Virus record (IMG/VR): IMGVR_UViG_3300011335_000900
Span: 65,106 to 129,105 of that record
Strand: one strand, 5' to 3'
Length of the DNA: 64,000 nucleotides
Source: a virus
Part shown: positions 60,779 through 64,000 of the stretch, one piece after another
Layout of the letters: every line of letters starts with the position of its first letter
Numbering within the stretch: the stretch's first letter is position 1
Program-made: the position numbers and the translations under genes
The notes under the pieces: model-generated
Databases searched by the model: none
What the model was told of the DNA's origin: nothing
What the model saw: the letters and a program-made list of their open reading frames with translations, nothing else

Positions 60779-61222
60779 ATGTTAAGTGAGTTAACGTTAG
60801 AGTATGAAGACGGAACTAGGGTAGTAAAAGTGGTTCCTAAAAGCGAATCCACAATTTACCCCCAAAGAGACAATATTAAACATTGCACTCATAGATCTTT
60901 CAAATACGAGGTATCAAAACACCCTTATTTATGTGTTGCTATTGTAAAAATGGGAGAGGAATATAGAATTATGCCTGAAGGTATTAATTGTATCCCTGAA
61001 ACTGAATTAAGTGATGTTTTGATAATAGATAATTTACCTAAAGTTGTTGAAAAGCCTAAACAGGAAAATAAATGGATGTTTGAATCCTCAAGTGGAGATG
61101 GCTTTTATCAAGTAAGAGAGAATATGGGTAAATTAAAATGCAGTTGTCCTGGATCATGGAGAGCATTTGATAAAAGATGTAAACATATTAAAGAAGTAGA
61201 AAAAGAGTTAAATATAAAATAA
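60779..61222 (+). CDS. SWIM zinc-finger protein
   Basis: YQV...CSCPG...CKH. Confidence 0.8.
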   Translation: MLSELTLEYEDGTRVVKVVPKSESTIYPQRDNIKHCTHRSFKYEVSKHPYLCVAIVKMGEEYRIMPEGINCIPETELSDVLIIDNLPKVVEKPKQENKWMFESSSGDGFYQVRENMGKLKCSCPGSWRAFDKRCKHIKEVEKELNIK

Positions 61223-61227
61223 AAAAT

Positions 61228-61320
61228 ATGAGCAAAAATTCAGCAAAACAAAACACAGAACAGTTCCAAAGTTGGTTAAGTTGGTTAAACTATATCACTA
61301 GAAAACAAGCTAAAAAGTAA
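61228..61320 (+). CDS. 30-aa hypothetical protein
   Basis: MSKNSAKQNTEQFQSWLSWL... Confidence 0.4.
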   Translation: MSKNSAKQNTEQFQSWLSWLNYITRKQAKK

Positions 61321-61325
61321 AATTT

Positions 61326-61379
61326 GGTCCTATCGACTATCGGTTAGGTCGTCAGGTTTTCATCCTGGAAAGCGGGGTT
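61326..61379 (+). pseudogene. Truncated tRNA-Glu(TTC), 3' half of T-arm and acceptor missing
   Basis: GGTCCTA, D-arm GAC..GTC, TCAGG-TTTTCAT-CCTGG, CGGGGTT, then break. Confidence 0.75.
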
Positions 61380-61387
61380 TACATTTT

Positions 61388-61459
61388 GTTCCGTTAGTGA
61401 AGAGGTTAACACGCTGCCCTTTCACGGCAGAGGCGTCGGTTCGAACCCGTCACGGAATG
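61388..61459 (+). tRNA. tRNA-Glu(TTC)
   Basis: GTTCCGT/ACGGAAT acceptor; CTGCC-CTTTCAC-GGCAG; GGTTCGAACCC; no encoded CCA. Confidence 0.9.
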
Positions 61460-61515
61460 CAAGAATAATTCGAATTTTATCGATTTTCGAACTCTCTTTC
61501 AATATGTATAATAAA

Positions 61516-61974
61516 ATGAAAGAGTGTAGTAAATGTAAAATTGATAAAGAAAATATAGAATTTGGTATATCTTCAAGAACTAAAGATGGTTCCAATTCAT
61601 GGTGCAAATTATGTGTTAGAGAAAGAAGTAAACAATGGTATGAAGGAAATAAGGAAAAAGCTAATAAAAAAAGTAGTAAAAGATCTCAAGACAGGAGAAA
61701 TTGGATAAATGAAATCAAACAGCAACTTAAATGTATTAAATGTGAAGAAAATCACATAGCATGTTTAGAGTTCCATCATATAAACCCAATTGAAAAAAAA
61801 TTTGAGATTGGTAGAGCTATAAACCAAATAGGTATTGAAAAAGAAGAAATATTAAAAGAAATGGAAAAATGTATTATTTTATGTTCAAATTGCCATAAAA
61901 AATTTCATTATTTAGAAAGAACAGAACAATATAATATAGAAAAATATTTAAATAATCAGGTAGCGGAATGGTAG
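61516..61974 (+). mobile_element. HNH homing endonuclease in the tRNA region
   Basis: CIKC...LEFHHINP...KCIILCSNCH..FH. Confidence 0.88.
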
Positions 61975-62050
61975 ACGCTAAGGTGGTAAGATAGAAAGTT
62001 CATAAACGGATTGCCTAAGGTATAAGCGGTTGCTAAGCAGGAAGTATGCT
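61954..62050 (+). ncRNA. 5' part of a tRNA-like element (no T-arm)
   Basis: AATCAGGTAGCGGAATGGTAGACGCTAA nearly identical to the start of 62228. Confidence 0.5.
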
Positions 62051-62145
62051 TTTAAAAAATAATTAAATTTCTCTGCAAAAAGATTAGGATTCCCGATATA
62101 GGGTTCGTATATTTACAAGGTAAGATAATTAATTAATAAAAACAA

Positions 62146-62209
62146 CAGCCTGTACCCTTGAGAAACTCGTATTTAAAGATAAGCAGGTTGGCTTCGAAAT
62201 AAAGGGGTA
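62146..62209 (+). ncRNA. Candidate pseudoknotted leader RNA
   Basis: CAGCCTG/CAGGTTG crossed by TACCCTT/AGGGGTA; internal GAG-AAA-CTC. Confidence 0.4.
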
Positions 62210-62227
62210 TTAGAATAAGAAGCAATT

Positions 62228-62331
62228 AGTCAGGTGGCGGAATGGTAGACGCTAAAATAATGGGTGGACAGCGTGCCATTGGGGTAGAACCAAGAAAGTT
62301 ACGCATACAGGTTCGAATCCTGTCCTGACTA
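62228..62331 (+). ncRNA. tRNA-like RNA with expanded non-canonical anticodon domain
   Basis: AGTCAGG/CCTGACT, Leu-like D-arm, perfect ACAGG-TTCGAAT-CCTGT; 54 nt between D and T arms with no standard anticodon loop. Confidence 0.75.
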
Positions 62332-62405
62332 CAAAAAAACGTTGGTGGAAACACTAAAGAGCATAATGATATCATCCCCAGCAGGTTAAGCATGCCCTGC
62401 AATAT

Positions 62406-62475
62406 AGTCAGATGGCGTGTTGGCATACGCACCCGATCATAAGGGAGATAATGGGTTCGATTCCTAATCTGACTA
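62406..62475 (+). tRNA. Degenerate tRNA(CAT)-like RNA
   Basis: AGTCAGA/TCTGACT; CCC-GATCATAA-GGG; mismatched T-stem. Confidence 0.5.
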
Positions 62476-62538
62476 CGCAAAAAACATTGAACTGAGTTTC
62501 CTTACCCTGCAAAGGATGGGTTTTACAAGTTCAACTAT

Positions 62539-62612
62539 GCGTCTGTAGCTCCAATTGGTAGAGCATCGGATTCCAAATCCGAGTGTTGGTGGTTCGAATC
62601 CATCCAGGCGTG
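62539..62612 (+). tRNA. tRNA-Trp(CCA)
   Basis: GCGTCTG/CAGGCGT; TCGGA-TTCCAAA-TCCGA; GGTTCGAATCC. Confidence 0.92.
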
Positions 62613-62651
62613 CAAGTACAAGAGTTCTTTGACATATAAAAATTTAGAAAA
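62613..62651 (+). repeat. 39-bp direct repeat, copy 1 (contains boxA-like GTTCTTTGACAT)
   Basis: Identical to 63472-63510. Confidence 0.92.
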
Positions 62652-62741
62652 GAATCTAAACGAGTAAAATTTGATGTGTTAAAATGTTAAAGTATTTGGA
62701 AATAAAAAATAAAAATTATATATTAAAATAAAATAAGTTAT

Positions 62742-63071
62742 ATGAACAGAAGACAACAAGAACGAATAGCAGATTTAGGAAGAGCATTCCAATCATCACT
62801 AGAAGAAATTATTGACATGGGTGAGGAAGAAACATTGGTGCGTGAAGATGAAGAATACGAACTACCAATTCCAATGCCTGTAGACATGAATGATAAATTA
62901 GCCCAGTACGATGTAAATATTAAACACGTACATAATGGGTTTATTGTTGGTGTTGGTTGCCAAACATTTGTATTTGAATCGTTTGACAAACTATCAAAGT
63001 ATATGGCAATATATTATGATGATCCTCGAGGAACATATGAAAAACACTATAAAGGGGAATTACTTAAATAA
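62742..63071 (+). CDS. Acidic hypothetical protein
   Basis: NGFIVGVGCQTFVFE; promoter at 62696. Confidence 0.75.
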   Translation: MNRRQQERIADLGRAFQSSLEEIIDMGEEETLVREDEEYELPIPMPVDMNDKLAQYDVNIKHVHNGFIVGVGCQTFVFESFDKLSKYMAIYYDDPRGTYEKHYKGELLK

Positions 63072-63087
63072 TATGTATACCAAAATA

Positions 63088-63466
63088 GTACCTACCACGC
63101 TTCTGGACCGGAGTATCTCCGATCGAGCGTACCAGGGTAGGTCTTTTGCTCACCAACATGAAAATGTTGGAACCCTCTAGTTCTCCGGTTCTAGAGTATA
63201 GTTCTTTACCTTAGGTAAGGAATCTATAAAGGTTTTGTGCATTGAACCCAAATCAATGCACCACGCCCCCCTGTGGATAGAATCTCCAGGTCCAGTACCA
63301 TCGGGCATACCGTTAGATCTGCTCACTTGGATGGTCTTTTCGATATTGGGAAGTTGGGATGCTTTGTAGGTGCAAACGCGTTGCCTTTACAGACTACCAT
63401 ATAACCACTATCACCCCCTAGAAAGTGCCAAGGACGCTTGGAAAACTACTAGGGGTTTTTTATTTT
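63088..63466 (+). ncRNA. Candidate large structured ncRNA (~380 nt)
   Basis: GC-rich relative to the genome; at least 7 hairpins; late motif at 63071; ends in CCCCTAG/CTAGGGG plus T-tract. Confidence 0.7.
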
Positions 63467-63471
63467 GGGGA

Positions 63472-63510
63472 CAAGTACAAGAGTTCTTTGACATATAAAA
63501 ATTTAGAAAA
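63472..63510 (+). repeat. 39-bp direct repeat, copy 2
   Basis: Identical to 62613-62651; 13-nt reverse complement at 63909-63921. Confidence 0.92.
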
Positions 63511-63511
63511 C

Positions 63512-63895
63512 ATGATAGAAATCACATCATATGTTTTAGGTATGCTTACGATTGCAGCAGTATTATTATTGATTGCTTTAGTTGTAGGTATGGTTAAGAT
63601 AAGCAAATTAGAAAAAAAAATAAGTGAACATCAAAAACAATTCGATATTGTATATGAAAATATGAGCCGCAGTGAAGAATATCTTCGTCGATTGCTTGAA
63701 GATACTCATCGCGATATCAATATGGTTGAAAAAACAATAATGAATCAAGTTCAACAAATTGATCAAGAACATCACAAAATAGAAGATGAAATTCATCGAG
63801 AAATTGATCAAACAAAATCCTATATTGATTCTCGAATCGATAAGGTAGTATTACAAGGTTCCCTTGTGGGATCAAAAGAATTAATTAAAGGATAA
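63512..63895 (+). CDS. Single-TM coiled-coil protein
   Basis: Start reassigned to ATG 63512; N-terminal TM then heptads. Confidence 0.75.
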   Translation: MIEITSYVLGMLTIAAVLLLIALVVGMVKISKLEKKISEHQKQFDIVYENMSRSEEYLRRLLEDTHRDINMVEKTIMNQVQQIDQEHHKIEDEIHREIDQTKSYIDSRIDKVVLQGSLVGSKELIKG

Positions 63896-63977
63896 ACTAA
63901 CCGTTAAAAACTCTTGTACTTTTATTTGGCTTTTAAAATTTTTTTTCGTATATTCCATTATAAAAAAGGAAAAATCA

Positions 63978-64000
63978 ATGAAAATTACATTAATCTCTGA
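63978..64000 (+). CDS. Start of a probable metallophosphoesterase (truncated by window end)
   Basis: MKITLIS(D) after the promoter at 63926. Confidence 0.4.

Follow-up and report, generated by a model that had tools for sequence, protein, structure and literature searches.

A structured phage RNA with two modules homologous to the AbiF-linked RNA of Bacteroidota: a candidate antitoxin mimic

What function is served by a folded RNA that is encoded on its own in a phage genome and is matched by no Rfam family? This question is raised by a block of about 375 nucleotides (nt) at positions 63086-63461 (+ strand) of the DNA analysed here, a 64,000-nt stretch, hereafter the window, which represents the last 64 kb of the 129-kb IMG/VR viral record IMGVR_UViG_3300011335_000900. 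The record, a phage of ~80% completeness and 30.6% G+C content (GC) overall, encodes a family B DNA polymerase with 25-32% identity to T4-like cyanophage and other T4-like phage polymerases. The block starts 470 nt 3' of tRNA-Trp, lies directly 3' of a small open reading frame (ORF) of 109 amino acids (ORF109, 62742-63071), and displays a hairpin and a T-run at its 3' end. The evidence presented below suggests that the RNA is a mimic of the antitoxin RNA of the abortive-infection nuclease AbiF and may disarm AbiF defence; we put the probability of this reading at about 0.6.

The first-pass annotation of the window regarded the block as a GC-enriched, structured non-coding RNA (ncRNA), and this is borne out by its composition and folding. 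GC over 63100-63499 is 0.43-0.47 as compared to 0.25-0.35 in the flanks, and no ORF longer than 49 amino acids was found inside the block. The minimum free energy of 63075-63470 is −139.9 kcal/mol, as compared to a mean of −107.6 kcal/mol (standard deviation 6.2) for shuffled sequences (z = −5.23), and none of 100 shuffled sequences folds as well. Window 63086-63461 encodes one stand-alone non-coding RNA, which is both conserved and folded.

Comparison with Rfam, at the gathering threshold over the whole 64 kb and at an expectation value (E) ≤10 over 61000-64000, gave no family over the block, and ARAGORN called nothing in it. Models of RNase P, transfer-messenger RNA, signal recognition particle RNA, 6S RNA, group I/II introns, GOLLD, ROOL, T-box and riboswitches do not match the block in these Rfam and ARAGORN searches, in agreement with the earlier remark that hallmarks of RNase P, transfer-messenger RNA, signal recognition particle RNA and group I/II introns are missing from it. 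Rfam likewise placed no family over the RNA in two minimal relatives and 19 further loci, and blastn (distant mode) of the whole RNA against 50,697 GenBank phage records gave no match. The comparison with GOLLD and ROOL, which the first-pass annotation had offered, holds for the context (phage or prophage, with tRNA genes nearby) and fails for the molecule itself, as neither family matches in sequence or structure and the window RNA is much smaller and contains two modules with an identifiable relative. The function of GOLLD and ROOL is itself not known, according to the accessible text of PMC5737381.

The identifiable relative is an RNA linked to AbiF genes of Bacteroidota. An Abi_2 (PF07751) search of 401 Bacteroidota genomes gave a match in 48, above the cut-off in 41, and 30 loci were fetched. 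Just 5' of most of the fetched AbiF ORFs lies a conserved element of ~54 nt, which shares its frame with the first hairpin of the window RNA. Its outer stem, of 7 base pairs (bp), covaries; an inner stem of 5 bp carries a 12-nt loop, and a 5-nt bulge and a U-rich tail complete the unit. Twelve of these host AbiF-linked elements, and no phage sequences, went into a covariance model (R1). When applied to both strands of the 64-kb window, R1 gave exactly two matches below E = 1, both of full model length and both on the + strand within the RNA block: AbiFr-like module 1 at 63086-63151 (hairpin 1; 55 bits, E 1.4e-14, model positions 1-54) and AbiFr-like module 2 at 63293-63344 (29.8 bits, E 1.5e-6). 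Module 1 alone was listed by an R1 scan of the whole record, module 2 being found by cmsearch on the window.

R1 was further applied to host loci and genomes. Of the 30 AbiF loci, 22 contained R1 matches (25 in all), and each of these 22 has one on the AbiF strand that ends at most ~200 nt from the first in-frame start. Eight AbiF-linked elements held out of training scored 38-44 bits, and phage module 1 scored 45-55 bits. Genome-wide, R1 matched 15 of 151 Bacteroidota genomes as compared to 0 of 151 genomes of another phylum; across 69 related viral loci it gave 58 matches. As judged from these model scores, the modules at 63086-63151 and 63293-63344 are homologous to the Bacteroidota AbiF-linked RNA. 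The host AbiF proteins are PbAbiF-like by sequence comparison, the L115 protein matching 8vz6_A over its full length at E 8.6e-55.

Rfam holds an abiF motif (RF03085), which has no match in the window at the gathering threshold or at E≤10. Among 13 host loci RF03085 recognised only the 'type 2' element of one (L106, 44.9 bits); Rfam is silent on the block because its model describes this different element. At least two unrelated RNA types occur upstream of Bacteroidota AbiF genes, type 1, which is modelled here and absent from Rfam, and type 2, which corresponds to Rfam abiF; two loci (L110, L111) carry two type 1 copies each, ~580 nt apart. A wholly new RNA class, unrelated to any known RNA, had seemed to fit the lack of a match in Rfam even at E≤10 and in the 50,697 phage records. 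It is refuted for modules 1 and 2 by the matches of the host-only model R1, and we consider it very unlikely. What stands of the earlier proposal of a new class is that the RNA is absent from Rfam 15 and covaries; the part that does not stand is its separateness, since two modules are homologous to the AbiF-linked RNA and the RNA thus matches a known one in part, through modules 1 and 2.

The two modules differ in what they retain of the host unit. Module 1 keeps P1 (63090-63096/63136-63142) and P2 (63097-63101/63126-63130), both of which are in the consensus fold, the 5-nt bulge ACCAG (63131-63135) and the tail CTTTTGC (63143-63149), all on the + strand; where the 12-nt loop would usually be, it has a 24-nt insert with a small hairpin (63102-63125). 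This inner hairpin covaries, from CGGAG/CTCCG through TGGGG/CCCCG to TGTGG/CCACG. Module 2 keeps the outer stem P4 (63297-63302/63330-63335, + strand), the conserved 12-nt loop TACCGTTAGATC (63308-63319, + strand) almost to the letter and the tail, CTTTT, after the module stems; its inner stem P5 (GCA/TGC, 63305-63307/63320-63322, + strand) is of 3 bp and its bulge is a different one of 7 nt. P4 and P5 covary, with A-U to G-C changes at the end of P4 and A-U to U-A changes in P5. A GTACCA...GGTCTTTT repeat, which had been recorded from the letters alone, is real and is explained by this arrangement, because each copy sits in one AbiFr-like module.

Is this RNA peculiar to one record? A degenerate core pattern found 64 IMG/VR viral stretches, and an exact 21-mer of the first hairpin found 29. 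A search with ORF109 led to three other IMG/VR contigs, two with the whole RNA and one with the first hairpin and terminator only. Family members are 148-393 nt long. Their universal core consists of P4 enclosing the 3-bp P5 with its near-invariant 12-nt loop, followed by the P6 domain and then the terminator; module 2 belongs to this core and is found in 50 of 50 aligned members. Members differ in whether they have the first hairpin, the optional hairpins M2 and M3, the two-hairpin module M4 and hairpin P3, and in how long the inner arm of P6 is. Outside the viral data, seven stretches with the core pattern among 185,579 species genomes were rejected as chance matches, since they lie in high-GC coding DNA, have flanks unlike those of the family and give no R1 match (0/7).

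The fold of the core is supported by strong covariation in the alignment A3, which holds 50 distinct core sequences and excludes exact duplicates and one relative whose terminator was not detected (L074). A structure of 38 pairs leaves 95.8% of cells paired as compared to 80.7% in shuffles, and its covariation score of 0.420 compares with 0.166 for shuffled alignments (0/500 reach it) and 0.05-0.08 for slid controls. In the RNAalifold consensus of 22 full-length members, 23 of the 56 pairs show compensatory double changes. All six local stems listed in the first-pass annotation exist where it had placed them; ACCTACC/GGTAGGT and ACGCT/AGCGT belong to the consensus fold of the 22 relatives, and the other four lie in optional, gap-rich modules that are unpaired in the consensus fold, their arms changing together in the members that carry them. 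Two long-range complements fared less well. ACCGGAG/CTCCGGT and CTGGACC/GGTCCAG are present and ~80% of their cells pair, yet 53 and 55 of 500 shuffles do equally well, and their covariation does not rise above that of shuffles. A mutual-information scan of A3 gave no supported pseudoknot, non-nested Watson-Crick support occurring only at the base of P6a. A kissing loop between CTGCT on the P5 side and AGCAG in the P6 loop of the minimal form was considered and dropped, as other short forms have small hairpins there.

Two further helical elements lie on the + strand. Hairpin P3 (CCTGTGGA/TCTCCAGG, 63270-63290), helix 1 of A3, is paired in 93.5% of cells with double changes in 4 of 8 pairs. The P6 domain (63339-63415), matched at 39.9 bits and E 5.8e-8 by a covariance model (R2) built from 20 short forms, has a closing stem of GATATTGG (63342-63349) and CCACTATC (63405-63412), a conserved internal loop GGGAA...TATAA and an inner arm P6a of variable length, which is capped in short forms by GAAA, GTAA or TTCG loops. 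Its helices, 4 and 5 of A3, covary. Imitation of a Cas13b repeat by P6 is a speculative idea that was set aside.

The viral DNA was searched for an AbiF gene. Abi_2 has no match in the 129-kb record, which is ~80% complete, and when four AbiF proteins were compared by tblastn with the viral DNA surrounding 90 loci, 898 kb in all, no match was better than E = 0.26. No Abi_2/AbiF gene of the same orientation stands directly 3' of the RNA, whereas one follows the element in 22 of the 30 host AbiF loci. In type III systems the toxin gene lies directly 3' of its RNA, but the gene 3' of the phage RNA differs between contigs, being a membrane protein, tRNAs or phosphoesterases. These results argue against the possibility that the phage has a toxin-antitoxin pair of its own, in which the RNA would act as antitoxin to an AbiF-like toxin encoded elsewhere and used, for example, to exclude other phages. 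The incompleteness of the record speaks for such a pair, as do AbiF systems in prophages, among which RCd22 of Clostridioides difficile has two abiF motifs per transcript, like the window RNA, and these are thought to serve one AbiF dimer (PMC12373285, accessible text). The likeness to RCd22 extends to the order of two AbiF-binding-type motifs and a terminator in one transcript, binding by the phage RNA being predicted through homology; the difference is that RCd22 adjoins its toxin gene and the phage RNA does not. On this evidence a toxin-antitoxin pair of the phage's own is quite improbable.

Antitoxin mimicry is the most likely mechanism because the RNA is encoded by a phage in which no AbiF was found. 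The phage would supply a stable two-module RNA during infection, and this RNA would occupy AbiF once the short-lived host antitoxin runs out as host transcription fails, so that the abortive-infection nuclease would stay locked and never be released. The accessible parts of PMC12373285 and PMC12737573, through which the PbAbiF-ncRNA complex of Zilberzwige-Tal et al. (Cell 2025) is known to us, describe a PbAbiF dimer (8VZ6, from a Prevotellaceae bacterium) that binds two copies of an ncRNA acting as its antitoxin; the inhibition of AbiF by AbiFr is attributed in a review to C32 and U38 in a single-stranded bulge. A two-module RNA would suit AbiF, since the dimeric toxin binds two RNAs, and the two modules may engage the two halves of one dimer. 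We infer that the phage RNA binds and neutralises AbiF and that the host is a Bacteroidota species carrying it. AbiFr is built of a 7-bp outer and a 5-bp inner stem, a loop of 12 nt of the CCGTAAGATC type, a 5-nt 3' bulge and a U-rich tail, and each phage module follows this plan in part, module 1 in the stems, bulge and tail and module 2 in the outer stem, loop and tail; they differ from it in lacking an AbiF gene 3' of the RNA and in being two diverged copies embedded, together with P3, P6 and optional hairpins, in a longer transcript.

A precedent for this mechanism is the escape of phage PhiTE from ToxIN through mimics of the ToxI RNA antitoxin in lab-selected escape mutants (PMC3594212, accessible text). 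As in pseudo-ToxI, the window RNA is a phage-encoded RNA that resembles a host RNA antitoxin, is accompanied by no toxin gene that could be found, and is proposed to hold an abortive-infection RNase inactive. It differs from pseudo-ToxI in being natural, widespread and structurally elaborate, and its likely target belongs to another toxin family (AbiF, HEPN). ToxI-like repeats reportedly gave rise to the PhiTE mimics, by expansion or through recombination. No published phage mimic of AbiFr was found in the literature searched, including the accessible text of PMC12948488, the primary AbiF paper and its supplements being outside reach. The AbiF system and antitoxin mimicry are thus already known; the literature searched gave no account of a natural, widespread phage gene with AbiF-antitoxin-like modules in a larger structured RNA.

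Two kinds of observation bear on the transcription of the RNA. The motif ATATGTATA (63071-63079, + strand) lies ~7 nt ahead of AbiFr-like module 1; it is a real recurrent promoter-like motif, because the pattern ATAT[GT]TATA recurs across the 129-kb record, with 37 copies on the + strand and two on the − strand, mostly 8-20 nt 5' of an ATG. The pattern probably represents a promoter class of the phage. At this spacing relatives have either a ATATTTAT-like motif or a box of the TAnnTTTG type, regardless of which module comes first, and the motif is taken as the putative mark of the transcription start. Its earlier description as a late motif holds for the motif itself, the late timing being putative. 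Contigs from freshwater metatranscriptomes of two studies span 63058-63397 and 63117-63295 with one mismatch each, a weak sign of transcription that is silent on RNA ends and levels. Uncovered parts (ORF109 in run X15, the RNA in run X17) are not counted as evidence, and the small-share runs X16-X18 were not used for habitat.

Several of these observations, and some from the host genomes, weigh against the proposed mimicry of the AbiF antitoxin. DNA carry-over is possible in RNA-library contigs, and the X15 contig begins 5' of the promoter-like motif. This motif stands before many + strand genes; if it is late, the decoy would come late for an abortive system that acts early. Neither module copies the host element in full, module 2 reaching only 29.8 bits, and some contigs have module 1 only (L004, L038) and many module 2 only. 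The missing part of the record could contain a toxin gene, as only ~80% of it is present. Furthermore, mimicry does not cover the whole RNA, because the universal P6 has no host counterpart that could be found, R2 having no match in 40 host loci and, in 151 Bacteroidota genomes, matching nothing but a palindromic repeat of intergenic DNA, and that weakly. Lastly, the host element is not strictly tied to AbiF: of its 17 R1 places in 15 genomes, six lie directly 5' of full AbiF ORFs, two beside AbiF remnants, and nine are orphans with no AbiF beside them.

The palindromic repeat, GGTTATTGG...CCAATAACC, which occurs at least four times in host genome G097 (L146, L149-L151) and was seen in G069 (L147), is probably unrelated to P6. 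Several of the orphan R1 matches lie beside HigA-, RelE- or PIN-type genes.

The last two of the points above would be expected if the likeness to the AbiF-linked RNA reflected shared ancestry or fold only, the phage RNA binding some other protein, aiding neighbouring tRNA transcripts or acting through P6, which together with the terminator is as universal as module 2. A role with tRNAs also draws on the 38 of 65 loci in which a tRNA lies less than 1 kb away, without exception on the strand of the RNA, but in the remaining 27 none lies within this distance. Against another function stands the near identity of module 1 to host elements in its 5' lead, P2, bulge and U-rich tail, a conservation outside the covarying stems which suggests the same binding partner. 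A function of this other kind is considered unlikely, and mimicry of the AbiF antitoxin is retained as the preferred explanation.

ORF109 and the RNA form a cassette of 859 bp between perfect 39-bp direct repeats, the left copy at 62613-62651 and the right copy at 63472-63510 (+ strand), just ahead of the next gene (63512-63895). A relative that is 97-99% identical over both flanks (L005) has a single repeat (2961-2999), no cassette and no R1 match, and a contig of RNA run X16 joins 62646 to 63505, which corresponds to the cassette-less form. The RNA gene is accessory and moves as a cassette. R1 had no match in five related viral records of 23-47% completeness (0/5). The family is an accessory gene of freshwater T4-like phages, whose hosts are probably Bacteroidota. 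ORF109 matches no Pfam family and PHROG only weakly (E ~0.03); its Atlas neighbours are hypothetical viral clusters with scores of 0.85-0.87, from which no inference is drawn. The complement of the first 13 nt of the repeat reappears after the next gene (63909-63921). Another segment absent from L005 is 61380-62141, which contains tRNA-Glu (61388-61460) and an HNH endonuclease (61504-61974; PHROG 2255, E 2e-28).

The RNA closes with an intrinsic terminator (63415-63461, + strand), made up of a T-run and, ahead of it, a long interrupted CCCCTAG/CTAGGGG hairpin that encloses an inner stem, so that the terminator-like end recognised in the first-pass annotation is real and covaries. Its helices, 6 and 7 of A3, are paired in 96.9% and 93.5% of cells with double changes in 10 of 13 pairs, and its inner part occurs in two interchangeable types across the family. 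A conserved structured domain that passes directly into an intrinsic terminator is also the arrangement expected of a cis-acting leader, a riboswitch or attenuator that would control read-through into the downstream gene, and metallophosphoesterase genes recur downstream in several contigs; the recurrent N-termini (...ISDTH...) are seen 3' of the RNA in the window (63979-64000) and in L030, L039, L045, L050, L056, L066, L071 and L082. As noted above, downstream genes are inconsistent between contigs, and in the window the 39-bp repeat supplies the next gene with a promoter-like element of its own. Inspection of the alignments revealed no helix competing with the terminator; the terminator arms show no covariation with the C-rich run that precedes P3, and the terminator is retained in members without P3. 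With no riboswitch family matching either, control of downstream genes by such a leader has very little to recommend it.

The remaining parts of the RNA are optional. Hairpin M2 (CCAACAT-GAAA-ATGTTGG, 63153-63170, + strand) occurs in 14 of 22 full-length relatives and is missing from minimal forms of the family; its arms covary (CCAACAT/ATGTTGG, CCGTTA/TAACGG, CCAATG/CATTGG). Hairpin M3 (CTCTAG...CTAGAG, 63175-63196, + strand) is present in the same 14 of 22 relatives, with two loop types and covarying arms (CTCTAG/CTAGAG, CCATAG/CTATGG, CTTGAG/CTCAAG). The two-hairpin module M4 (63197-63263, + strand), found in 7 of 22 relatives, consists of TTCTTTACC/GGTAAGGAA and GTGCATTGA/TCAATGCAC joined by the linker AAAGGTTTT; in one relative (L025) it is placed 3' of the terminator of the RNA (458-526).

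M4 has a host counterpart of its own. Blastn gave one real match in the 401 Bacteroidota genomes, and a model built from nine phage copies only (R3) matched one genome in a sample of 151 from the phylum and seven in a sample of 151 from the Bacteroidota order to which that genome belongs. The host counterpart (L159-L165) stands alone as a small RNA unit that possesses a −7 box and a terminator of its own, and in 7 of 7 loci it converges on the 3' end of the neighbouring gene. This neighbour is a defence gene in six of the seven: PDC-M04 twice, a HinP1I-type restriction enzyme, a type I S subunit, AbiEii and SoFic. Since two modules appear to copy the AbiF antitoxin, and M4 a host small RNA beside defence genes, the RNA might be a multiple decoy, each hairpin module copying a different immunity-linked host RNA and being shuffled between phages like a cassette; P6, M2 and M3 would, on this view, have further partners to mimic or bind. 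This extension of the proposed AbiF mimicry is tentative and, taken as a whole, rather unlikely.

Other RNA elements occur in the neighbourhood of the family. The Freshwater-1 RNA (RF02979) lies near family copies in L088 (74.5 bits) and L091 (70.9 bits, just under the cut-off), and a pistol ribozyme of 48 bits lies near family copies in related viral contigs, the coordinates of these Freshwater-1 and pistol elements being 9983-10044 in L088, and 668-729 and 2664-2725 in L091. An element of ~95 nt, TAGAAGGC...GCCTTCTA, is near-identical in L002 (~2803-2905) and L004 (~2850-2945), where it lies between tRNAs and the 109-amino-acid ORF. In the window, tRNA-like genes are seen at 62228-62331 and 62406-62476, neither of which is called by ARAGORN. 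The first has good acceptor, D and T arms, a 45-nt stretch replacing the anticodon and variable arms, and scores 38.1 bits with the Rfam tRNA model; the second, downstream of the first, is aberrant, and the same scaffold adjoins the RNA family in other contigs.

The finding bears on both phage counter-defence and the AbiF system. To our knowledge very few cases of RNA-based phage counter-defence have been described, the laboratory-derived pseudo-ToxI being the classic example, and AbiF belongs to an RNase family thought to be ancestral to Cas13. P6 is a conserved domain without a known relative. For uncultured freshwater T4-like phages, the homology of the two modules provides a clue to their hosts, which it places among the Bacteroidota. 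If the RNA neutralises AbiF, it would be a ready tool for switching AbiF off, and since the two phage modules keep different subsets of the host unit, the features needed in an antitoxin would become a question that can be asked. It would also mean that phages in the environment routinely deploy antitoxin mimics.

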